From Paramecium tetraurelia (lineage: Eukaryota), in the NCBI GenBank assembly GCA_000165425.1, contig CT867996.1, positions 1-64,000 on the forward strand: 64,000 bases of DNA, given 5' to 3'. This document shows positions 25,617-60,151 of this stretch, in pieces (position 1 is the first letter of the stretch; each line of letters opens with the position of its first letter). The notes beneath the pieces were generated by a model that worked only from the letters and a program-made list of their open reading frames with translations, searched no databases and had not been told where the DNA came from. The translations under genes were made by a program, and so were the position numbers.

Positions 25617-25691
25617 AGTATATATAGATACTTTATATATTTAATAATTATTTATTTTAAATTAATAGAATTAGGAATACTAATAATATAT

Positions 25692-27163
25692 ATGAATCAG
25701 ATAAAAGAGCTTGAGATTAAATGTTCTATAGAAGATCATGATTATGCCTAATTAGTTTGTTTAAATAAAGAGTGTAAAGCTAATAGAGTTTATTGTGACT
25801 AATGTATAAGAAATGGAGATCACATTGCTCATATTAATGATTAATGGAATATATAAAAATTAATTCTGATTTTTTAGAATATAGAGAAAGAAAGCGAAAC
25901 CTTAAAATCAGATTTGTGTTTGATAAATTAAGAAATTAATAAAATATTTACTTAATTAAATTAAAAGATTACAAAGAAATATCAATATTCCAAAGAGAGA
26001 TTATAAAAATTGGATGCAAAACAATTACATTAAATCTTAAATTACATTATTAAATATGAAGAAGTTGAAAAAAGTGTATTAAACGAAGTTAAAAAATGTT
26101 CAGATGATATGATCATGCAAATAAAAAGATATACTTCAGAATTGAAAATAGAAGAGTTACTCATTAAAAATTCAAGAAAAATAAAATACAACACAGTTAT
26201 TTTAAAAAGGTATTGAATCATTAATTTAGGATATTAATTATATTAAGAAGATAATGAATATGAGGAAGCAATCAAATTATTTGATGATGCATTATTTATT
26301 AATCCTGATCATTTGAATTCTATCACTTCGAAAGGTATAAACTAAACTAAAAATTTTTTAGCTGAATGCTTAAAATAGCTTAAGAATTACAATGATGCAA
26401 TCCTATATATTGATAGAGCTTTATCTATAGATTCAGTGCAAGTCGATTCTTTATATACAAAAGGTAAAATCCGTAATCAATGTTTTAGCTCAATGTATAT
26501 ACATGCTTGATAATTTCAATGATGCAATTCTATGGTGCGATAAAGGTTTATTTATAGATCCAAAACATATCAATTCTTTATAAACGAAAGGTTAAAATTC
26601 AGACAATAATATTTAGCGGAATGTTTAAGAATGCTTGGCGATTACAAAGATGCAATTCTATGGGCTGATAAAGTTTTGTCTATCGATTCAAAAAATGTCA
26701 ATTCATTACATACTAAAGGTTTGAATTCAGTTAATAAGATAATAGCTGAATGTTTAAAATGGCTTGATAATTACAAAGATGCAATTTTATGGGCTGATAA
26801 AGCTTTATCTATCAATTCAAAGCATATCAATTCATTATTTACAAAAGGTATATTTTACTACATTAGGCGAATCATTAAGAATGTTGGGTGAATATGAAGA
26901 CGCCATTAAGATATTAGATGTAGCATTGAATTAAAATCCGAATCATGATTAATCTCTCGTCTGCAAAGGTCTATTGTATTTCTATTCTTTTAGGAGCCTG
27001 TTTACAATCATTATAAAAATATTAAGAAGCCATCAATTGCTATAATTAGGCAATTTAGATCAATCCAAATTATTAATTTGTTCAAAATCAAAAAAGTATA
27101 TATTAGTTTAGATCTATAGTTGTTTGTGAAAATCAACTGAAGAAACAATAAATTAGAAAATGA
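25692..27163 (+). CDS. B-box-like Zn finger / coiled-coil / 7x TPR protein; apparent +1 frameshift near 26166-26175
   Basis: N-terminus CSIEDH..VCLNKEC..YCDQC..H..H. Phase-1 introns at 26210-26229, 26335-26361, 26464-26488, 26591-26616, 26719-26745, 26848-26866, 26969-26993 and 27096-27119. TPR units read AECL..L..Y.DAI...DKALSID.K..SL..K. Confidence 0.85.
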
Positions 27164-28559
27164 TAACTTGAATAATATATTGATTTAAACCATCAACTAT
27201 AATTATAATAAAATTCATTTATCAATTTAACATTATTTTTTTTTTCTTAGAAAATAAATTTTATCCTCACTCTAACTTATTAAATTCTTGTATTTGGAAC
27301 TTTATAAATACATCCCTCCTTCAAAATCATAAAAAATATATCATTATTAAATTTTTGAAATCAATTGTATTTCATTATTATAATTTTATTTGATTTTTAT
27401 AGAAGTTAAATGTTAGAATAGTTTACTTAGCTTGAAAGCAATAAAATATATGAATTAGATTAAATAAGGAAGATTAATAACAGCAAATAATACATAATCC
27501 AAATTTTTCAACAATTAATTCGAGATGAATTGCGATTTCTAGCAATATTTTTATTTAGAATACTTAGCTAAAAAGCTATGTAATGCCAATAGACTTTTAT
27601 TAGAATCATGATGGAGAAAAACATGGATAATATCTTTTAACATTTAATTACTTACGAATTCTATTTATTCTTTCATCTAATGTCATGCTGAAGTTATTAT
27701 TTTTTTAAATAAAGGAAGGATAAAAAATATTTCATTCGTCCATGGCAGGTCTTTCACAATCTCTTAAGCAAGGTCTAAGATATAGTCAAACACTATACAT
27801 TTGGATTAACATTACATAGAGAATAAAAATAACTTTATGAGAAGCATAATCCTAAGAAATTAAATGGCAAATTAGTGTTCCATATATAATGCTAAAAGTA
27901 TTGACTATGTTAAATTTTAAATTATATAAGCTTGTACTTTATCAATATTATAATTTGTGAATCTGATACTCTAGCGGTGTAAAACATTTCATTTATATGT
28001 TATGAATAAATTCAATTATTTGTGTAAGAAATCATCTTATACTGCTACTACTTTAAACTTTATGAATTTCAAACTTTCGTCAGGCAGATAATTATCATAA
28101 TAAGAAAAACAACAATTGCAAATATTGAAGCAAGAAAGAGAGAATTAATTAAGGGAGAGACTTACTGAAACCTCTATTTTCCTAAATTATCTTTCTTTTT
28201 TGTACTTGAAATTTTTGGATTATATCACAAATAAATAAATCTTTCTTAATATAATTGTTTATTTTGCTATATATTTTAGAACTGAAAGTGAAGAAAAATT
28301 AAGAGGATTGGTATAATGATTAAGCTTGAGTTCATGTATTTCTAAGTACTATGAGGGTATAATGTGTAAGCAAAAATCTTCATAATTAATTTTTGCTTAA
28401 TAGAATAAATTTGCTAAATAATATTACTCTACCTGAAATTGTAGGGGGCATCAATAAATCATTTTCTTACTAAGCAGCATTTTATAATTTTAAATATATC
28501 CTTTACAGAATTTAAGTTTATAAAAATAAAAATATGGAATATTACTTAAGTCCTCTATA

Positions 28560-32905: not shown

Positions 32906-34072
32906 TCATTTAAGCTGGATGCTGGAAAATTAGATAATAACTTAATCTCTGTAGTTTACTTATAACATCTAAATAGGAAAGTTAAACATACATTGCTTTA
33001 AAGATAAAGGAATCAAATGTGTTTGAATGATAAGTTTTAGATTTTATCCAATGGCTGAAAATCTTTTGAGACTCCAAGGCTTAATCAAATAAATGTATAT
33101 TTAAATTTTCACTTCTACAGTTTGATTCCTCTACTTTTTCTAGATTTAAGTTTTTCATAGAAATTTTTTCATTCAAAACATTTGATAGAAAGTAATCAAT
33201 ATGCTATTAATATTCATCTCCTAGAATTAATTTGAATTAGTTTATTATATTTTTAGCATGTTCCTTTTCTTTTAGTAAAACTTTCTTCAAGTTGTCTTTA
33301 TATTAACTTATCAAATCATAATGAATTGCATTCGAAAGATTTAATTATAAAATTACCTTGTTCCTACTTAAAACAATCATAGGATGGCTAGGGTACTCTT
33401 TAAAATGTTCCTTTACCGCTTTTAAAGAATATAAAAGATTAACAAAGTTTTACAAATCCTCATAAACATAATATTCAATTTATTGTAATTCACTCTAATA
33501 CTCTGTCTTATTCTCAATCTGATAAACTATATTTTTTTCTGTTGGGTTAGTACTCGTTTATTGAACAATTTAGCTTGATTCAGAATCAACAGCTTTCTTT
33601 CCTTCAACACCATTAAAAATATTATTCAGAATTAAAGTACATTGCTTCTATTCATTGAAATTTATAAATTATTCTAATTTTGAATTCATTTTTACAATTA
33701 ATGCTTGATTTATTTACATAATTTCATTATTGAAAGATGATTCATTATTACCCTATATTTTTTCATTTTATATTAGTTTGTCAAGCTCTTTAAGGAAACT
33801 ATAATCCTTATTCAATTATCTTATTTAATTAAAACTTTTTATCCATTCTTTATAATTTTCAATTAATTTATTTTTTTCTATATTAACATAATATTTTTAA
33901 TAATCAATATTCTACTACAATTATTTTACTTATTTTATATTTTTTTATTTTTTATTTTTTAATATTTCTAAATTACTTATTATATTTTTTTCAATCAATT
34001 ATTATTCTTTTTTTAAATATAACATTTTATTTATATTATTAAATTTTTTTATATATTTTTTATATAATATTT
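32906..34072 (-). pseudogene. Partial or disrupted hypothetical coding region running into the assembly gap
   Basis: About 180 codons are open from 33719 to 33173 in the ciliate code. Flanking coding-like sequence lies in other frames, and the 5' part is low-complexity next to the gap. Confidence 0.25.
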
Positions 34073-34489
34073 NNNNNNNNNNNNNNNNNNNNNNNNNNNN
34101 NNNNNNNNNNNNNNNNNNNNNNNNNNNNNNNNNNNNNNNNNNNNNNNNNNNNNNNNNNNNNNNNNNNNNNNNNNNNNNNNNNNNNNNNNNNNNNNNNNNN
34201 NNNNNNNNNNNNNNNNNNNNNNNNNNNNNNNNNNNNNNNNNNNNNNNNNNNNNNNNNNNNNNNNNNNNNNNNNNNNNNNNNNNNNNNNNNNNNNNNNNNN
34301 NNNNNNNNNNNNNNNNNNNNNNNNNNNNNNNNNNNNNNNNNNNNNNNNNNNNNNNNNNNNNNNNNNNNNNNNNNNNNNNNNNNNNNNNNNNNNNNNNNNN
34401 NNNNNNNNNNNNNNNNNNNNNNNNNNNNNNNNNNNNNNNNNNNNNNNNNNNNNNNNNNNNNNNNNNNNNNNNNNNNNNNNNNNNNNNNN
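34073..34489. other. Assembly gap (N run)
   Basis: Run of N. Confidence 1.
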
Positions 34490-34836
34490 GTTTTTAAATT
34501 ATTATTATTAGCAACAAATATTAGTTCTTTTTATTTTTTCAATCATTTTTTGGTTTCATTTTTTCCGTTAATCACATTTTTGTTAAGAATTTTAATTTAA
34601 ATAATTAAACCACGGAAGATCCCATTTTTAAGCATTTTCATCATATAAAAAAAAAGAATGAATGATTGATGGAATTATACGGGTGAATATTCAAAAATAA
34701 ATATTGAATATTTAATGCTCAATATTGATGTGGAATATGAAAAATTGGAATTAATATAAGTTCAAGAAAAAAATAAAAAAAATGTGATAATAAAAAATTC
34801 CTTAAATGTTAAACATTATCTATCAATTTAAAAATA

Positions 34837-36516
34837 TCAATATTATTCTTAAAATTCTCTAATTTAAATCTCATTTAAAGAAGGATCATATATTATGAGA
34901 ATCTCTCCATTATCACTAATACTTCCATTTAGATTTCCATCTCTAAGTTCTATTGATTATGCTAAATTGCACTCATAATTTTAAAAATCTGACGAAAAAG
35001 AAAATTTTAAGATATTTATAGCACTTCCATTAATACTTAATAATAAATTCTTAAATGCAACAAAGATCCCAATTTAATAATAGGATACTTCTTCTTTTTT
35101 AATTGTTCCCTTATAAATAATTTCACTAGTTTTTATATATTGTTTTATGTTGGAGTCAAATGAGTAGAGGGATACCGCTTAGGATTATTTTTAATAGAAG
35201 CTAAACGTGAAGTTGTTTATGTAACAAACTCCAGTTCCAATTATTTGTATTTTTTATTTTAATATCCAAATAGAATTAATCAATTCATATATTGTGATAT
35301 TCCAGTGACTAGAAACTATTAATTGATTTCCAACAGGATTAATAGATAAACCGGTAATACATTCACTAGAAATCTAAATTTATTATTCAGAAGTCCAAGA
35401 TTATTTAGCAAATTAATAAAAATAGATAGAATAGCTTCGAGAGAAGAAGAATTCATTTTCAGCAAAGTTCAGTTACAAAAATTAAATCTAGGAAGTTGCT
35501 GCTTTCCTAACAATTTCATATTCATATTTTACTCTAAAAATTGGATTCCAGTTAGTTTTATTAAAAAAATTGGTATACTTTGACCAGATTGTAATAAGTT
35601 AATCTTCAGATGTTGAGATTAATGAGTTTAACATTGTTGTTTTCTTTTTGAAGAAAACGAGATTTTGTACTCTCTAAGTTCCCTTTTCTCTAAGGATTGC
35701 CAATTAATTTACATTTTACTTTTACTTTTGTAAATAAAATTAGATCTCCATAATTTTGATGCCATCATCTTAACCAATAGCAAATAAAGAATTGTCATGA
35801 TTGATTGCCAAAGAATAACATTTGACTTTTTCATTTAATTAAAATTTCGTTTTAAACTCATAAGAAAAAGGTTTTTTGTTACCAATAATTGTTCTAGGTA
35901 ATTGTTAAAAAGTGTGTTCAGGTTTGTTTTTTGTATCTTCCTGCCTAACCAACATTACCTTCTTGCCAATCAATTAATTCAAAATTATTTATATTTTATT
36001 TTTTTCTTCATAGTACTCAAATTTAATCAAGCTACTAATTGTTTCACTACACCACTTTTCATTGATTTTTTTTAGATCTATAGGTTCAAAATCTAATTCT
36101 CCTGAATTTTTAATTAAGCTATTCAAACAATCAAAAAAACTATAATTTGCCATCTCTTTTCCAATATCTTTCAGTCGATTTATGAAATTATTCACTCTAT
36201 TTTCGAAATCATCCAACTCTTAAATTATTGTTTTTCTTAGTTAATAAATAGTTCCACTTATTCTTGTTAATTATTGTAATTAAGGGATAAGTTCATTCTC
36301 ATATTCTTTTAACCTCTATTTTAAAGGTTTTTCTATTATTTTTAATACTCCCTATATTGGTTTTAAGTCTTACTCAATCTAATCTATGCATTCTTTGCAA
36401 TATAATCTCTAGTTTGGAAGTAGGTTTGCCTGCAGACTTATTAAACTGACAGGCTGATTGTGTTTAAATTTACAAGAATAATCTTAAAAATTCTCCTTAC
36501 TTTTTACAGTGAACAT
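34837..36516 (-). CDS. Zn-finger-like / coiled-coil / divergent WD40 beta-propeller protein, 559 aa, intronless
   Basis: 1680 nt, ATG to TGA. N-terminus CKFKHNQPV..QRLYCKEC. WD-like blades include CYSLAINHDNSLFAIG, LISTSEDQLITIWS, GLSINPVGNQLIVSS and GSISDNGEILIIYD. Confidence 0.85.
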
Positions 36517-45773: not shown

Positions 45774-48700
45774 TCATTCGTTTTATTGATCAAATCTGGT
45801 GCAACTTGTGATTTAATCTGGCTTATTTGCCCAAGGACTATTATTAATAAAAATATTTACATCGAATATATGATTACTTCATAAATTTATTATTCTTATT
45901 ATTCGTTCAAATATCTTAACTTTATATTGTAATTAAATCCAGCTACAAGTTATTCATGAACGCTAATTATGGATTCAAATTCAAATCCTTCCTTTTAAGG
46001 ATTAAATTTTGTGTTCACCTCATTAATTGCTTCTTCAATTACAATTTGGTTAGAATTACTAAATTTATTTTCATTTAGTAATTTCCATGATCCTGATGGT
46101 TATCTCTTTGATCCTCTTAATTAGTTGAATTATTATTTTGGTGTTTCTATTGTCTTTTAGAATTCGGAAGATGAACTTGAAGTACTTTATTAAGCAGGAG
46201 TGTTACCTTCTTAGGTAAATTCTCTACTAATTTAAGTTGCTTAACTATCTATTTTAGTTTAATTTCCAGCTCCTAATTCAACATTTTCAATGTTTGTTTG
46301 ATTAAAAACATTTGTGAAATTAGAATCTATTGATTAGTTTACAATTCCTTCTTAAATCTATTAGTCTAATTATTTTTCACTTTAAATATCATTGATTGTA
46401 ACATTGTAAATATTTTCACTAAAACTTGAGTTAGAAATTTGGTTTCTATTAGCATGAATTGTATTTGCTGAATTTGATTGTTAAGATTAATAAGTACTAA
46501 TATTTCCATCATTATATTTTGTGCTATTATTTGTATTATAGAAAGATTACTAGTTGAAAGTTTAATTTTATGTGGATTGGTTACCATCTTAATATCCACT
46601 CATTTATTCACTTTTGAAGACATTGCTTTGAGTTGAATATTATATTTGTGAATATTCTCCATTCTATTTTGATTAATATGATTCACTTTCGTTGATTGAG
46701 GATGAAACTAAATTTGAACTATTTGTGTTAATATTTCCATTTGAAACATATTAGTTTTAGGTAGATTGTGATTAATAATTAGTTTGATCTCGTAATTTAC
46801 TGCTACTTGATGAATTAATATTTCTATCAATTTCTCCATTTATTTATTAGGTATTACTGGAGGAATTGAAATTTTGAATTGTTGAAGACGAACTACCAGA
46901 TTCTGTGCTTTAATATATTTGCTCTTACTATTAATATCTTTCTGATGAAGTTTTGTTTAATTGTGCTTGTCCTTAGCCATTCTGATAACTAACTTCTCCT
47001 TTTCCCCTATTTAAATTATTTTGAATTGTGTAATTATCATTGTATTAAAGACCATTTTAAGATAAATTTTTCGGTTTAATACTAGTATTTAGCGGATATT
47101 GCCAGATGAAACTTTAAATCAATGTGCCATAAAATACAGCATTATTATATCCTTAAGAATAAGAACTACCCGTGTAAGGCTTGTAAACAACTATGCTGAA
47201 TTGCAAAGTAGCATTTCTAAAAACTGTATTTCCATGTGAGTCATATATTTTATTCAATGTAATTAATTCATTATCATTATAATAGTAATATGTAGAATTA
47301 TTACCTGACTTTGGCTTATATAAATCCGTTTAATTAAATATAACTATCTATTAATATGACTACATAGATTAGTTATAAAACATAACAGTCTAAGTGGAAT
47401 TATTTTATTAGGATTGAACTTCTTGATTTCTCAACTTTAAGCTAATTTTAGATTTTTAAAGTTTTGATCGAGTTGATAATGAAATGCTAGACGAATTTGT
47501 TGTATTTGAGGTATTGCTAGAATTAGTATATGTATAATAATTGGTATTTGTATTGTATTATGGATATGAGTAATTGTATTATGATGGGTAACTTCCATTT
47601 GTAAAGTTAGTGTTATTAGTGGTATTTGAGGTATTACTAGAATTACTATATGTATAATAATTGGTATTTGTATTGTATTATGGATATGAGTAATTGTATT
47701 ATGATGGGTAACTTCCATTTGTAAAGTTCGTGTTATTAGTGGTATTTGAGGTATTACTAGAATTACTATATGTATAATAATTGGTATTTGTATTTTATTA
47801 TGGATATGAGTAATTGTATTATGATGGGTAACTTCCATTTGTAAAGTTCGTGTTATTAGTGGTATTTGAGGTATTACTAGAATTACTATATGTATAATAA
47901 TTGGTATTTGTATTGTATTATGGATATGAGTAATTGTATTATGATGGGTAACTTCCATTTGTAAAGTTCGTGTTATTAGTGGTATTTGAGGTATTACTAG
48001 AATTACTATATGTATAATAATTGGTATTAGTATTTTATTATGGATATGAGTAATTGTATTATGATGGGTAACTTCCATTTGTAAAGTTCGTGTTATTAGT
48101 GGTATTTGAGGTATTACTAGAATTACTATATGTATAATAATTGGCATTAGTATTTTATTATGGATATGAGTAATTGTATTATGATGGGTAACTTCCATTT
48201 GTAAAGGTCGGGTTATTAGTGGTATTTGAGGTATTACTAGAATTACTATATGTATAATAATTGGTATTTGTATTTTATTATGGATATGAGTAATTGTATT
48301 ATGATGGGTAACTTCCATTTGTAAAGTTCGTGTTATTAGTGGTATTTGAGGTATTACTAGAATTACTATATGTATAATAATTGGTATTAGTATTTTATTA
48401 TGGATATGAGTAATTGTATTATGATGGGTAACTTCCATTTGTAAAGTTCGTGTTATTAGTGGTATTTGAGGTATTACTAGAATTACTATATGTATAATAA
48501 TTGGTATTTGTATTGTATTATGGATATGAGTAATTGTATTATGATGGGTAACTTCCATTTGTAAAGTTCGTGTTATTAGTGGTATTTGAGGTATTACTAG
48601 AATTACTATATGTATAATAATTGGTATTTGTATTGTATTATGGATATGAGTAATTGTATTATGATGGGTAACTTCCATTTGTAAAGTTCGTGTTATTAGT

Positions 48701-49859
48701 GGTATTTGAGGTATTACTAGAATTACTATATGTATAATAATTGGTATTAGTATTTTATTATGGATATGAGTAATTGTATTATGATGGGTAACTTCCATTT
48801 GTAAAGTTCGTGTTATTAGTGGTATTTGAGGTATTACTAGAATTACTATATGTATAATAATTGGTATTAGTATTTTATTATGGATATGAGTAATTGTATT
48901 ATGATGGGTAACNNNNNNNNNNNNNNNNNNNNNNNNNNNNNNNNNNNNNNNNNNNNNNNNNNNNNNNNNNNNNNNNNNNNNNNNNNNNNNNNNNNNNNNN
49001 NNNNNNNNNNNNNNNNNNNNNNNNNNNNNNNNNNNNNNNNNNNNNNNNNNNNNNNNNNNNNNNNNNNNNNNNNNNNNNNNNNNNNNNNNNNNNNNNNNNN
49101 NNNNNNNNNNNNNNNNNNNNNNNNNNNNNNNNNNNNNNNNNNNNNNNNNNNNNNNNNNNNNNNNNNNNNNNNNNNNNNNNNNNNNNNNNNNNNNNNNNNN
49201 NNNNNNNNNNNNNNNNNNNNNNNNNNNNNNNNNNNNNNNNNNNNNNNNNNNNNNNNNNNNNNNNNNNNNNNNNNNNNNNNNNNNNNNNNNNNNNNNNNNN
49301 NNNNNNNNNNNNNNNNNNNNNNNNNNNNNNNNNNNNNNNNNNNNNNNNNNNNNNNNNNNNNNNNNNNNNNNNNNNNNNNNNNNNNNNNNNNNNNNNNNNN
49401 NNNNNNNNNNNNNNNNNNNNNNNNNNNNNNNNNNNNNNNNNNNNNNNNNNNNNNNNNNNNNNNNNNNNNNNNNNNNNNNNNNNNNNNNNNNNNNNNNNNN
49501 NNNNNNNNNNNNNNNNNNNNNNNNNNNNNNNNNNNNNNNNNNNNNNNNNNNNNNNNNNNNNNNNNNNNNNNNNNNNNNNNNTCTTCATATGTGTAATTAT
49601 ATTAAGTTTTATTCACCGTTGTAAAGAATATGGATTTAATTGCGGAATCATCTATTTTAAACATAAAAGTACTTATTTTTTCACTACTTGCAATTTCTGC
49701 TTTTGGTAGGCTAGATGTCTATTCAAGGTGAAGAATATGATTTATTTCTTCTCTAACTTAGATGTTATTCTTTGCTTTATTAAGTAATTATTCAACTGAA
49801 TCTTGTCTTGCCGTAACGCTGAGTACTAACAAAATAGCAAACATTGATAAAGTTTTCAT
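45774..49859 (-). CDS. Large secreted Asn/Thr/Ser/Tyr-rich repeat glycoprotein with a C-terminal cystatin-like domain (spans a gap)
   Basis: Signal-peptide-like start MKTLSMFAILLVLSVTA, then the gap, then 40-aa repeats and a long N/S/Q-rich region. It ends SGSW...HEQLVAGFNYNIKL...YS(intron 45838-45860)IPWANKPDQITSC. Continuity across the gap is inferred. Confidence 0.8.
47502..48912. repeat. 120-bp tandem repeat, about 11.8 visible copies, continuing into the gap; coding on the minus strand
   Basis: The sequence recurs every 120 nt with few substitutions. The unit encodes GSYPSQYNYSYPQ(Q/Y)NTNTNYYTYSNSSNTSNTTNNTNFTN. Confidence 0.98.
48913..49581. other. Assembly gap (N run) within the repeat gene
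   Basis: Run of N directly following the tandem array. Confidence 1.
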
Positions 49860-52800
49860 TAAAAATAATATTAATAATTTTGGATTTGATTTTCAGATTT
49901 TTAGATGGAGCAAATCTTATTTATTTAATTAATTTTTTTATTTCTTAATTTATTTAATAATTATGTTTAAAATTTGTTCTTCACAACAACCATAAATTTT
50001 GAGAAAACCTTTGTTGATGATATGAGCCCATTTAAGATTAAAAATATTGGAATTGTCTATTTTACAAGTATACATTAACTTTCTTACTATTTATACTCAT
50101 TCAATACTGAATCATTCAAAACCAAATTCGACTGAAATTTATCAAAATTGATTTATGAACATTATTTTTATTCATGTATTTATCCTTTCAATGCTATATG
50201 AAACTGTAAATTTTTATAATTATCTTTCATTCTGGAAATTTTTAATTTAATGTATTTAATTTAGGAGAAATGCTCCCACTAATTATTTGCTATTGTAGAT
50301 GAATAAATCGTTTTAAATAGTTCATTAAAGGAAACTGTCTTGGAATTACAAAAAAATATAAATTATATCAAAAGTAGCAAAATGGTATGAAAAGTTAGAT
50401 ATATGTCATTTTTCCATCACGAGATTTAGCGTATATTTATTAAATCACCAAAATATTTTAAATTTCTTTTTCACAAGATTACATTCATACTTATAAGTAT
50501 TTTTAGAACTCTATATTTGTTAAGTGCTGAGAAATAGTATTGTTTTTCTATTTATTTTTGTATGCTACAGTTTAAAAGAGAAAATTAATTGTTAAAGTAA
50601 AATAATGCGATAAATTCCCTAAGATATTTTTAAACATATTCTAATTAATTAATAGCAATATCAAGACTAAAAATAAGAAAACTCATAAACTACACTCCAT
50701 GAATTTATTAAATCCAATTACAGTTTGGTTAAATTTTATAGGAATAATAATCAATCAAAAAATTAATTATTTACATGATTTCTCCTCCATACATTGTTGA
50801 TAAATTTAAAATAGAAATAATTTGAAAAATAATATTGTTGAAATTCATCAACCTATTTTTTAATGCAATTATTAAAGCTAATAGATATTCCTAATTTATA
50901 AAATTTACTTATTTAAACATTTTTGTTTACTTATATATGCTTATTTATATCAGATGGTAGATGTTTATTTTTTATATTAGAAAACTAGTTTTAATTCATA
51001 AATATATTTCTTTGAGCGCAATTTATCCTAAGCCTAAGAATTCATATATTATTTGATCCAGTTAAAATGTTCATCATCAAGTGAGAATAAAAAATGAATT
51101 TATCTGTTGTGCTGGATGCTAAATTATTATTTAATGAAGTATTTAAATTACCTTCTTAAATTAATGCAAGTCAATTTCTACTTCATTGAAATATGATTAT
51201 ACCTTTAAGAATTCAAACTATAAACTCAATCTTAGCATTTTCCTTAGTAGCTAATTTTTATAATCTATGAACAGATAGAGTGAGCTCCATCATGATGAAG
51301 AGTGTATTTCAGGCCTATTTCTTGAATTAGCCTTGATTTCTAATGATGGTACCATAATTTAAACACTTCCTAAAACACAATGAAATTTTCAAATCTGACA
51401 TAATTAACTCGAAAAGCAAAACTGACGAATATTCAGTTAAAAATTAGAGATGCTAATGCTGTAATGAGGTTAAATTCAAAAAATATTACAACCTAAAAGA
51501 TCAAACTCTGTTATCACTATAGAATATTTGTTTCAAGAAATTACAAATACATTACACCGAAACAAATTTTAAGATGTTAAAATAGGGCAGTTGTTTGAAA
51601 ATGCAATTACAAAACTGTTATCCGAAACCTTACTTTCGGTTAGATGTAGGTTGGGGTTATGACTAATCCAAATAAAGTATGGATGATTAACGTCACAAAA
51701 CAACTACGATTATAGAATACAAAGCTTAAAATATTTCATAAACAGCAACCTTATTATGAATTAACCAAAAAATATTATGGTAAAATAAGTGTTCAATTCT
51801 CATTAAAAAATTTGCATGAAATTAATATGTTATGAATTGTTTAGAAAGAAGAATTTTAAGTTAGATAATTTTCATTTTAGAAATTATTTTGGTTATCTCA
51901 ATAGTTAATAACTCACAACAAATCTGTTTCAAGGTCTAAATTACAGCGTTTGGTCAATTTTTAAATCAGGAAATTATTTGTGGCTGCTCCTTTTGTAATC
52001 ATTGAGGAATGAAATTAGCATGATTTCTGCAAATTCAAGCAAAATCTAAAATTATATATTATGAACTTTAAGTGCAATTTAGAGCAGAGCATGATATTAT
52101 TTTTTAGACGAGATCCTTTGGACCAAATTATTTTAGTCCTTAACTAAAAAAGGATCAAACAAAATCGAGATGCAAACATAAAAACATACCATAATTGGAA
52201 TTTTAGTGCATTAGGAAAAATGGTGTTATCATATTGAATAAAACAATTAATGGTCAAATTTATGAAATCCATTTAATAGAATTACTTAAATTGATTTTTA
52301 TAAGTTATGAAAAATGAAATATACTTATCATCTTGGAATGAACTTAGGTGCATAAGAACCGATTGTAAAATAATACTGAATGAAACAAATCGGCTGCAAT
52401 ATTCCAAATTATTAAATTCTTAAAACCCTTCTTTCCTTTCAAGCAGTGCACAATTGGGGATGAGAGGGTGTATTTTCTATAATAGTAGTCTTTCTCAAAA
52501 ATGCTTCCTAATTTCTTATGCTAATTTGAGATATGCTAGTTTACGCAAAAGCAAATTACTTTTATTCTTTGATTGACATAAAAAAATTATAATTACTTTA
52601 AAGAATACCTGATCCAAATGCTTCTTTATGAAAATTTCCATGTCTTTTAAATTCCGTTTTCTAATACCGAGAATAGTCATTTTATTATTCTCATCAGAAA
52701 TTTTAGAAAGTTTTTCATTCTAAAAAATTATCATCAAAAAAATGCTAATTTTCTCAACTTATGACATCTTTCAGAAACAAATTTTTAGAACAATTTGCTC

Positions 52801-57793: not shown

Positions 57794-60151
57794 TCATTAA
57801 TTATTTTTTTATTTTAAAGCTTTTTCTTTCCTCTCTATTTCTTTTAAACATATTTCTAACAAATAAATTTAAAACAAATAACCTTTTAACTTTAAGCTAT
57901 TTTCATCATTGGGATCTATTATTAAAGCCCTTTCAATCACTTTTTGTGCTTACTTTGGCTCGCCTTACTTTCTTAAACAATTGCCTAAAATACAGTTTAG
58001 ACTTACTTAATCCTCTTAGACAAAAAATTCGATTTTTATCAATATTAAGTGCTTTTTCATAGCATTCTTATGCTTCTTTATATTTCGTTAATAATCTTAG
58101 GCTTTCTCCTAAAGTTTCAGTAAAATATATACCTTTTCCGGTTAAAGACATAGAATCATTTTCATTTAAGTCTAATGACTTATTATAATAATGAATTGAA
58201 TCTTCATATCTTCCTAAACATCTTAGACTTTCAGCTAAGAAATAAACAAAAAATACACCTTTTCCTAATAAAGATAATGAGTGATTTTAATTCAGCTTTA
58301 AGGCTTGATCATAAAATTCTATTGATTTTTGATACTCTCCCTATGCGCTTAGAATGTCACCTAATTTAATTTAACACACTAACCTCTTCCTCTTAAATTC
58401 ATAAAGAAAATCGGGTCATCGCTTTATGATTCTCCATTAGCCTTATTTAAGGATTCCTAATAGTATTCATCTGCTTCTTTGAATTTTTTTTGCATTCTTA
58501 AGCATTCTCCTATAAAAATATTAATAATGAGACCTTTTCCATACAGCGATAAGCAATTTTTATTTAGTTTTAAAGCTTTATCCAAAGTTTCTAATGACTC
58601 TGGAAATTTATGCATTAATCTTAAGCAATTTGCTTTGCCATTTAATGATGGAATATCATTTGGGTATTTTTCAAGAGCCTTCTCATACAATTTTAAAGCC
58701 TCTTCATATTTTCTATCCTTTTTTAAATTATCAGCTATGGATTATTAATGTAAATTACCAGAAATACAGAATTCAAGAACTTCGTTTTTATCGAAAGGTT
58801 CAGGTGCTGTTAAGTTGGGTGTTTATTTTTCATCTAACTAGTCTTAAATCGATTTATTAGATTCATCTTCATTGTTTTAAATATACAGTGGATTTTCTGA
58901 GGTCCTAGTTTAAAATATGCCACTAATTAAAGAAGGGTCTTCTGTTTGAAAGTCAACATCTTGTTTTTCACCTTAATTTGAATCATCAAAATCCATAGGT
59001 ATTGTATTTTGTTCCAACTCAAATAAGCATAAACCTAAAATTTAGTACAGTTTTTAAAAAAAAATACCTTTTCCAAATAATGAATCTACATTTTTCTAAT
59101 CGATCTCTAAAGCTAAATCATATTATTAAATAGCTTCTTTATATAACTCTTAATGCCTTAAACATTCACCTAAAATATAATTTTATAAAACCTAATCCTA
59201 CAAGAGATAATAAATTTTTTTCATCCATTTACAATACCCTCTCATACAAAGGTTTTGATTGTAAATAATCCTCAAGCATTCTTAGACATTCACCTAGAAA
59301 TTTTATGATTCTCTTACCTTTTCCAACTAATGATGGGATATCATTTAATTCAATTTCCAACGCTTTGTCATAATATGGAATTGCCACTAAGAATTCTTTT
59401 AGCAATCTGTGGCAATCACCTAAGCTTCTCCAACAAATTAGGTTTTTTTGGTCTATATCTGTAGCTTACTTATAAATAACGATCGATTCTTTATACTTTT
59501 CTTATTTTTTTAATATGTCAGCTAAAAATTTGAATTACTTATTAAACCTGTTTAAATATAATAATGAATGGATCTTTTTTCTTCTTCGGTTAATTAAATG
59601 GAGGGTTTTTCATTATTTTAGTTACTTGATTAAGCATTATCATAGATCGTATCTATTTTATTATCTTCATCACTTTAGTTAATTTCAATTGTTTCATTTT
59701 TAACATTTACCAATTCAATCAATTTTTTTATTTCTTCGATGTATATATTACTAATATTCTATATTTTCTTCTTAATCTGGTCAGATTTCTTATCGAATTT
59801 TAAAATATTATCAAGCAATTTGTGTTTTTAATTACTTTGCGAAAGATTGAGGTCTACAGAATGTTATGCCATAATAACGGCCTATAGTTGTTTAATAGGT
59901 TCTGTCACAGAATTACATAATGAAGATAAGTAATCCTCTAATTCTTAATATTTCTAAACCTGATCTTGGATATAGAGTTCAGCTTCTTAAGAGTTTACTA
60001 GTTGATGATTTTTGTGATTTTCAAATTCTACACATTTATCACAAATGAATCTAAATTCAGAACAACTTTCAGCTAGGCAAATGGATTTTACTACGCTTAG
60101 GTGATGCCCTAACTAGCAATATAGTTCGATCCATTATGATTGCTACGACAT
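57794..60151 (-). CDS. B-box-like Zn finger / coiled-coil / two-cluster TPR protein with 10 introns
   Basis: N-terminus CQLGHH..ICLAESC..ICDKC..HKNH. Phase-1 introns at 59522-59547, 59294-59317, 59170-59191, 59035-59067, 58735-58758, 58510-58533, 58361-58383, 58235-58258, 58109-58132, 57985-58006 and 57856-57882 (10 within the TPR arrays plus one before them). An acidic linker separates the two TPR clusters. Confidence 0.9.

Follow-up and report, generated by a model that had tools for sequence, protein, structure and literature searches.

Why should a gene be divided so that each exon carries one period of the repeat from which its product is built? This question is raised by a gene on the forward strand (positions 25692 to 27163, here called gene 1) of a 64-kb stretch of Paramecium tetraurelia DNA (positions 1 to 64,000 of contig CT867996.1, hereafter the window), wherein a run of 102-nt exons separated by tiny introns encodes tetratricopeptide repeat (TPR) units of 34 residues. 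A first-pass annotation of this sequence had equated one exon with one TPR, and had proposed that such symmetric exons constitute cassettes that can be duplicated, swapped or skipped in frame. Our analysis of gene 1, of a second gene in the window and of related proteins indicates that the layout is in all likelihood a passive footprint of tandem duplication of an exon-plus-intron unit, and not the mark of a special cassette mechanism.

The six exons on which the proposal was based were checked directly, and each is exactly 102 nt long, as had been reported. Four of them encode TPR units that we call central-type units 1 to 4 (positions 26362–26463, 26489–26590, 26617–26718 and 26746–26847), followed by one penultimate-type unit (26867–26968) and one last-type unit (26994–27095). 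The introns between them (26464–26488, 26591–26616, 26719–26745, 26848–26866 and 26969–26993) measure 25, 26, 27, 19 and 25 nt, which agrees with the range of 19–27 nt given previously, and all begin with GT and end with AG. Furthermore, every intron does cut the same codon position, as the first-pass annotation had claimed. All are in phase 1, and the split codons are GCT, GCT, GCG, GCT, GGC and GGA. The sequence preceding the cut is ..AAAG, and Ala or Gly is encoded at the boundaries of the six exons. The symmetry ascribed to these exons, meaning phase 1 on both sides and a length that is a multiple of three (3n), is likewise borne out by direct reading.

The array extends beyond these six exons in both directions. 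Exon 1 (25692–26209, 518 nt) encodes a zinc-finger-like Cys/His motif and then a long helical hairpin, and a 20-nt GT..AG intron (26210–26229) cuts the first repeat at its TPR position 8. The next exon (26230–26334, 105 nt) carries a first-type TPR unit and is separated from central unit 1 by a 27-nt phase-1 intron (26335–26361). At the other end, a probable phase-1 intron of 24 nt (27096–27119) precedes the last exon (27120–27163), which encodes the start of a capping helix and closes with the stop codon TGA at 27161–27163. When positions 27096–27119 are spliced out, the tail ..NQK|IVCENQ.. becomes collinear with ..DRK|IECES.. in the related protein P0010 and with ..DKK|TECENQ.. in the related protein P0007, and thus exon 26994–27095 is a true internal exon. 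Three of these introns (26335–26361, 26719–26745 and 27096–27119) are 3n in length and lack an in-frame TGA. In gene 1 as a whole, all eight introns are in phase 1, with a split codon for Gly or Ala in seven and for Ile in the last, and the seven TPR units lie exactly 34 residues apart after splicing.

Assignment of these units to the TPR class is consistent with profile searches. For each of the seven exons of gene 1, TPR_1 or TPR_2 ranks first or nearly so among Pfam families (E values of 3.9e-09 to 0.049), and TPR_1 E values for exons scanned singly range from 3.9e-09 to 0.074. Only exon 26994–27095 scores above the curated TPR_1 cut-off (36.4 versus 27.8 bits); the others fall below it, as would be expected of isolated 33-residue pieces. 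The whole proteins of relatives carry precomputed TPR families.

The register of exons and repeats can be set by the Pfam alignment, in which residue 2 of an exon aligns with profile position 10. The split codon therefore corresponds to TPR position 8, a small residue of helix A. For P0007, a relative from P. tetraurelia, the AlphaFold model (mean pLDDT 88.7) has alternating helices of 13–14 residues over residues 185–354, with pLDDT values of 94–98 across most of this region, and the helices are paired. The model thus predicts helix-turn-helix pairs of the TPR-solenoid kind in this relative. Residues 210, 244, 278 and 312, which are the equivalents of the split-codon sites, fall in the middle of helices (203–215, 237–249, 271–283 and 305–317, respectively). 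One exon hence comprises the end of one helix A, the whole of helix B and, from the helix A that follows, its first seven residues. The equation of one exon with one TPR is right for the 34-residue period, but not for the structural repeat, whose helix A is bisected by the intron.

A profile made from the seven exons of gene 1 and run over the window revealed a second member of the same family, gene 2, on the minus strand (57794..60151). A model built with explicit intron coordinates has 12 exons and a conceptual product of 694 amino acids with no internal stop, and the gene is intact. Its 11 introns are 22–33 nt long and are all in phase 1 at TPR position 8, and its internal exons measure 204, 102, 102, 276, 201, 126, 102, 102, 102 and 102 nt, such that six of ten are exactly 102 nt. 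Four of these stand in a row (58360–58259, 58234–58133, 58108–58007 and 57984–57883, separated by introns of 24, 24 and 22 nt), and the other two follow the 204-nt exon, which encodes two repeats uninterrupted by an intron (59068..59521 for the three exons). The runs of 102-nt exons are therefore of two and four in gene 2, and of six in gene 1. Two repeat boundaries of gene 2 lack an intron, which accounts for the exons of 204 and 201 nt; these boundaries read ..TTAG|GTGA.. and ..AAAG|CAAA... Both TPR blocks of gene 2 open with such a two-repeat exon, and its 276-nt exon encodes an acidic non-TPR linker that separates the two blocks.

The units of gene 2 resemble one another at only 40–65 of 102 nt, and exon length and intron position are kept nonetheless. 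This combination of low similarity with a constant exon length and intron site indicates that the architecture is old, and is not simply the trace of a recent duplication. The two genes have 21 position-8 boundaries, of which 19 contain a phase-1 GT..AG intron (all 8 in gene 1 and 11 of the 13 in gene 2). Neither gene model places an intron away from position 8 in roughly 3.4 kb of coding sequence. Twelve exons in the two genes are exactly 102 nt, in addition to the one of 204 and the one of 201 nt. As a spacing control, the window was subjected to a crude scan for intron-like elements separated by an open stretch. Inside the two TPR genes, a spacing of 102 gave 12 hits (mean of 0.85 per length), and outside them it gave 11 hits (mean of 8.4, standard deviation of 3.3). 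Within the 64-kb window, the spike at a spacing of 102 nt is confined to the two TPR genes.

The wider sequence features fit the genome from which the DNA comes. The region is AT-rich (24% GC), and its coding sense requires that TAA and TAG are read as Gln, with TGA as the only stop codon. The best protein matches are from Paramecium pentaurelia, P. primaurelia, P. octaurelia, P. sonneborni and P. tetraurelia. This codon usage, the GT..AG introns of 19–33 nt and the best matches together place the window in a Paramecium genome, and the reading of TAA and TAG as Gln along with the size of the introns marks that genome as being of the macronuclear type. The sizes, GT..AG ends and AT-richness of the 19 introns fit Paramecium introns, for which a published study gives a median of 24–25 nt and GT-AG ends (PMC12862383).

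Comparisons among units show how the array has changed over time. Tandem Repeats Finder reports a period of 128 bp (3.9 copies, 77% matches) across positions 26357–26849. The four central exons of gene 1 are identical at 74–85 of 102 nt in pairwise comparisons, with units 3 and 4 being most alike (85 of 102), whereas other pairs of gene 1 exons match at 45–58 of 102 nt. Values of dS among the central exons are 0.30–0.47. In relatives, the order of units is one first, one to four central, one penultimate and one last, followed by a short tail. These counts come from 16 family proteins, of which P0001–P0010, P0012–P0014 and P0016 have full or near-full arrays, and gene 1 has four central units. 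In the family alignment, gap lengths come in multiples of 34 residues, and the distance from one unit to the next is exactly 34 residues for 119 of the 138 pairs taken from 42 proteins. Duplication of units, as the first-pass annotation had envisaged, is thus well supported by the identity of the central exons, by the variable number of central units in relatives and by the 34-residue alignment gaps.

In contrast, the companion claim that cassettes are swapped finds no such support. In a tree built with 64 units of 12 proteins (34 columns, with little resolution inside types), the units cluster by position type, with support values of 99/99 for last, 86/92 for central and 84/87 for first units. 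In this tree no unit has moved position, and only the central type varies in number. The units of gene 1 and gene 2 are alike at 66 of 102 nt at most. Neither the tree nor the two genomic loci give any sign of an exchange of units between positions or genes, although the power of this comparison is low.

A simple history probably accounts for these observations. An ancestral TPR unit would have gained one tiny intron in its position-8 codon (for Gly or Ala, as G|GN or G|CN after ..AAAG), and the array would then have grown by tandem copying of the 102-nt exon together with its intron, as a unit of about 121–129 bp in gene 1. Copying of the whole unit gives each copy an identical exon length and a phase-1 intron. 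The number of central-type units would still be changing by gain and loss, with unequal crossing-over or replication slippage being the likely routes, and two introns would have been lost in gene 2. Finally, a frameshift in exon 1 has separated gene 1 from its TPRs, and gene 2 is intact. In the architecture of the family, an N-terminal Cys/His motif is followed by a long helical hairpin, and an array of TPRs forms the C-terminal part.

A tandem array whose period is 3n stays in frame when homologous copies misalign, whether or not it contains introns, and symmetric exons therefore add little to duplication at the DNA level. Moreover, introns of 19–33 nt make up about one-fifth of the unit and offer a small target for breakpoints, so the regularity of the array is more simply viewed as a by-product of copying than as a device for diversification. 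Exon symmetry would matter mainly for exon skipping at the RNA level.

Several observations nevertheless weigh against passive duplication. The junctions of all introns were predicted from sequence. The four runs used for comparison consist of assembled contigs rather than reads, such that a lack of cover over the array is uninformative; their RNA or possibly-RNA contigs fall only on positions 25659–26064 and 25728–25896, plus pieces of 31–45 nt at 26768–26806. Outside the window, intron positions are deduced from protein signatures of relatives. Among the six tested intron pairs of the central units, only one is similar beyond chance, namely 26591–26616 and 26719–26745 (similarity score of 8, reached by 9 of 2,000 shuffles; the highest score among 88 cross-gene intron pairs is 7), and hence the common descent of most introns is deduced from their position and not from their sequence. 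The introns, earlier described as differing in sequence and length, are not all unrelated; this pair precedes the most alike exon pair. The context ..AAAG|G.. is also a good proto-splice site, at which independent insertion may have occurred repeatedly. Moreover, 10 of the 19 introns are 3n (24, 27 or 33 nt), and retention of any of the ten would bring no TGA into frame, an outcome not expected from passive copying alone; the binomial P value of this excess is 0.065 against an expectation of 1/3 and 0.009 against 1/4. Lastly, dN/dS values of 0.47–1.23 among the central exons, which rest on roughly 19 synonymous sites per pair, fit relaxed constraint but also diversifying selection.

Some of these features would be expected of an active cassette system, in which symmetric 102-nt exons vary the TPR surface through in-frame skipping, through retention of 3n introns or through exchange of exons between family members. 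Because all exons are 3n and in phase 1-1, the skipping of any one keeps the frame, and the stop-free 3n introns are of a kind described as rare in most ciliates outside the heterotrichs in a review of ciliate introns (PMC13685798). The number of central units varies and their dN/dS values reach above 1, frameshifted or truncated models of relatives (P0011, P0015, P0017, P0035 and P0046) suggest turnover by birth and death, and arrays of TPR and leucine-rich repeat (LRR) exons in Ectocarpus have been interpreted in this manner (PMC3341825). However, we consider an active system unlikely given that the units fall into positional types of which only one varies in number, that the units of the two window genes are not close and that the excess of 3n introns is weak when judged against 1/3. 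Regulated splicing in P. bursaria consists mainly of intron retention and alternative 3′ sites (PMC12862383), and gene 1, which prompted the finding, is itself frameshifted upstream of its array. A more ambitious version of the idea would see here a large TPR exon-array family of Paramecium's own, as the counterpart of the LRR arrays of Tetrahymena. Skipping of its symmetric 102-nt exons, and retention of its phase-1 introns that are 3n and free of stops, would escape nonsense-mediated decay, and one gene could yield TPR surfaces of different length with which to recognise ligands that vary, for example those of prey, symbionts or mating partners. We regard this version as very unlikely.

Alternatively, the intron of each repeat might have been inserted independently at a preferred Lys7-Gly/Ala8 site (AAA G|GN), with exon length merely reflecting the 34-residue period. 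Indeed, 16 of the 19 introns follow ..AG and 17 split a codon that starts with G, most introns are unalike (the scores of five of the six central-unit pairs are reached by 121 to 936 of 2,000 shuffles) and two boundaries of gene 2 have no intron. Yet this route needs 19 insertions at one site and none elsewhere in the coding sequence of both genes, and the one similar intron pair adjoins the most similar exon pair. At the dS values seen among central exons, neutral introns of about 22 nt that accumulate insertions and deletions would be expected to lose their similarity anyway, and the two intron-free boundaries have the look of precise intron loss. Parallel gain is therefore highly improbable in our judgement. 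The least credible alternative, to which we assign almost no weight, is that the short GT..AG stretches are coding linkers, or that the pattern arises artificially when an AT-rich repeat is read. In favour of this view, the contigs compared contain no RNA that spans a junction, the ten 3n introns can be read through without meeting a stop, and in three relatives the public model does translate such stretches. However, 9 of the 19 stretches are not 3n and would break the TPR frame, their removal yields the exact 34-residue period that prevails among the unit pairs of relatives, and their size, ends and composition are those of Paramecium introns. Tandem duplication of an exon-plus-intron unit is thus the explanation that we favour.

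Indirect evidence for the same intron sites in relatives comes from proteins in which the 34-residue period is disturbed. In four unit pairs of P0012, P0026 and P0040 the period is 42–43, and the 8–9 extra residues coincide precisely with the boundary at position 8. Each insert begins with G or S (xGT) and closes with L or I, ahead of A or G (..TAG), as would result from reading through an unspliced 24- or 27-nt phase-1 GT..TAG intron. At the first boundary of P0046, the residues GIKSSNQ are followed by out-of-frame TPR sequence, which appears to be the signature of an unspliced intron of the 20-nt class (such as that at 26210–26229). Retained-intron inserts or long out-of-frame translations of TPR exons are frequent in the public gene models of this family from other Paramecium species, as in P0011, P0012, P0015, P0017, P0026, P0035, P0040 and P0046. 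Such Paramecium models are either frequent pseudogenes or the outcome of systematic mis-annotation of tiny 3n introns. Since the public models often translate 3n introns or lose the frame, the numbers of repeats and of family members given in current Paramecium annotations are likely to be unreliable for these genes.

The state of gene 1 deserves separate consideration. Its 518-nt exon 1 ends in phase 2, whereas the acceptor at 26230 requires phase 1, and the TPR array is consequently out of frame with the start codon at 25692. Frame 0 is open from this ATG and is 55% identical to P0007, without gaps, over residues 1–157 (to nucleotide 26162). The end of exon 1 resembles relatives only in frame 1, where ..QLFQKG matches ..QLYQKG and ..FYQKG. 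Within the zone 26157..26209 of the forward strand, reading has to pass from frame 0 to frame 1, which is an apparent frameshift when set against other members of the family. A frame-1 peptide from positions 26146–26208 gave no BLAST alignment with P0007, the peptide being too short. Rescue of the frame by an alternative splice site was considered and rejected, as GT occurs only at 26156, 26196 and 26210 between positions 26140 and 26235 and no GT..AG pair has the required length class.

A DNA contig of the independent run X1 (4,831 nt, with three base differences from the window) covers positions 25659–27300 with no gaps, so the frameshift cannot be put down to an assembly error in a single project. 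The unspliced open reading frame from 25692 to 26216, with 174 codons plus TGA at 26214–26216, is identical to the public predicted protein P0025, which lacks the TPR part. The seven TPR exons and the tail of gene 1 are still open in frame, and the splice sites are intact, so the lesion is probably young. With its TPRs separated from the start codon by the exon 1 frameshift, gene 1 is probably either a truncated gene or a pseudogene of recent origin. More generally, the family is best read as fast in turnover. Several short contigs, from runs X1, X17 and X19, align with positions 26767–26820 and 26351–26383 alone, with one to five differences, and one DNA contig of 10.7 kb matches only 26351–26383 (the end of an intron and the start of an exon) before continuing into different TPR-like sequence. 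These piecewise matches indicate that closely related units exist elsewhere in that genome.

Both window genes start with the same N-terminal module, in which eight conserved Cys/His residues are followed by the long helical hairpin. Residues H16, C35, C38 and H44 are invariant, and C11, C23, C28 and H47 are kept in at least 90% of 12–14 family sequences. The conservation of these putative ligands, and their B-box-like spacing, suggest a zinc-finger-like motif resembling a B-box. The N-terminal 172 residues have no match to Pfam zf-B_box or NB-ARC at E ≤ 1, the first 57 residues give a single chance-level row (E = 3.9) against sequences of the Protein Data Bank, and Foldseek with the N-terminal model returned nothing at E ≤ 0.001. 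The best Foldseek rows, weak as they are (E of 0.5–0.7), are the KAP1 RBCC domain, PML B-box1 and TRIM29 B-box2. An alignment of model residues 1–69 with the B-box-coiled-coil of TRIM5alpha by VIA-align gave Z = 5.3 and a root-mean-square deviation of 3.3 over 61 residues; a wide search with the same method was dominated by generic helical hairpins. Like TRIM/RBCC proteins, the module has eight Cys/His residues within about 37 residues and then a long antiparallel helical hairpin. Unlike them, the Paramecium family has no RING domain, and its C-terminal part is a TPR array.

A query with the N-terminal module found 58 cluster representatives at E ≤ 0.001, most of them with TPR arrays. The module is also joined to C-termini other than TPRs (P0041, P0048, P0057, P0059, P0061, P0063, P0065, P0066, P0071, P0073, P0074 and P0076), which by eye, and prior to any domain search, include WD40-like sequence (SGSDDKSIKFW), a P-loop-like GTPase motif (GETGVGKST) and others. 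From its distribution, the module seems to serve as a general adaptor head in Paramecium.

Two further results concern sequences outside the family. A scan with the family alignment also returned seven loci on metagenome contigs, but at 26–34% identity and with GC contents of 39–67% these are not Paramecium and were not used. Elsewhere in the window, the stretches of lowest GC content are 48001–50000 (16.4%) and 34001–36000 (17.9%), and the former shows a strong GC skew of 0.43.

How do these arrays relate to known systems? In the classical case of modules encoded by symmetric phase 1-1 exons, 3n exons are duplicated or removed in frame. The Paramecium arrays resemble this arrangement in that their exons are symmetric and 3n, such that in-frame duplication or removal is possible. 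They differ from it in that the exon boundary lies inside a repeat helix and not between folded modules, and their introns would be too short to act as sizeable targets for recombination.

A closer parallel is found in another ciliate. The LRR genes of Tetrahymena contain arrays of exons of exactly 90 bp, with more than 98% of introns in phase 2 (Xiong et al. 2019, PMC6564038), and the analogy drawn by the first-pass annotation is therefore correct. These arrays were attributed to duplication of exon/intron units through unequal crossing-over, and an association with a LINE-like element was reported (PMC6564038). Tetrahymena and Paramecium share tandem, fixed-length 3n exons of one repeat period each, a single intron phase, a junction codon common to neighbouring exons and an exon number that differs between genes. 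The repeat, length and phase are nevertheless not the same (LRR, 90 bp and phase 2 as opposed to TPR, 102 nt and phase 1), which makes the Paramecium arrays an analogue and not a member of the Tetrahymena system. The scale is also different, with exons that number in the tens of thousands in Tetrahymena and reach 51 in a single gene, compared with 7–13 units per gene and 58 cluster representatives in Paramecium. The LRR genes of P. tetraurelia are described as having no 90-bp peak, and the arrays are called unique to Tetrahymena (PMC6564038).

Outside the ciliates, NB-ARC-TPR genes of the brown alga Ectocarpus encode each TPR and a linker on a 126-nt exon, with evidence of shuffling (Zambounis et al. 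2012, PMC3341825). As in Paramecium, there is one exon per TPR, there are pseudogenes and the number of repeats varies. In contrast, the main exon is 126 nt and the N-terminal domain is NB-ARC, where the Paramecium genes have 102-nt exons and a Cys/His motif with a helical hairpin; Ectocarpus exons of 102 nt that are "TPR-like" were regarded as truncated and probably non-functional (PMC3341825). Ectocarpus introns hold shuffled, inactivated exons, whereas the 19–33-nt introns of Paramecium hold nothing, and the shuffling described for Ectocarpus has no counterpart in the unit tree or the two loci examined here. On these comparisons, the TPR arrays of Paramecium are of the same kind as those of Tetrahymena and Ectocarpus, while differing in repeat, length, phase and register.

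No description of a layout with one TPR per 102-nt exon in Paramecium was found in the literature searched, a search whose coverage excluded most subscription journals, and neither "TPR" nor "tetratricopeptide" appears in a recent survey of ciliate introns. The findings described above extend the layout of one repeat period per fixed-length exon among ciliates beyond the LRR genes of Tetrahymena, to a TPR family of Paramecium. They point to a way of enlarging families of repeat proteins that ciliates share, through tandem copying of an exon together with its tiny intron.

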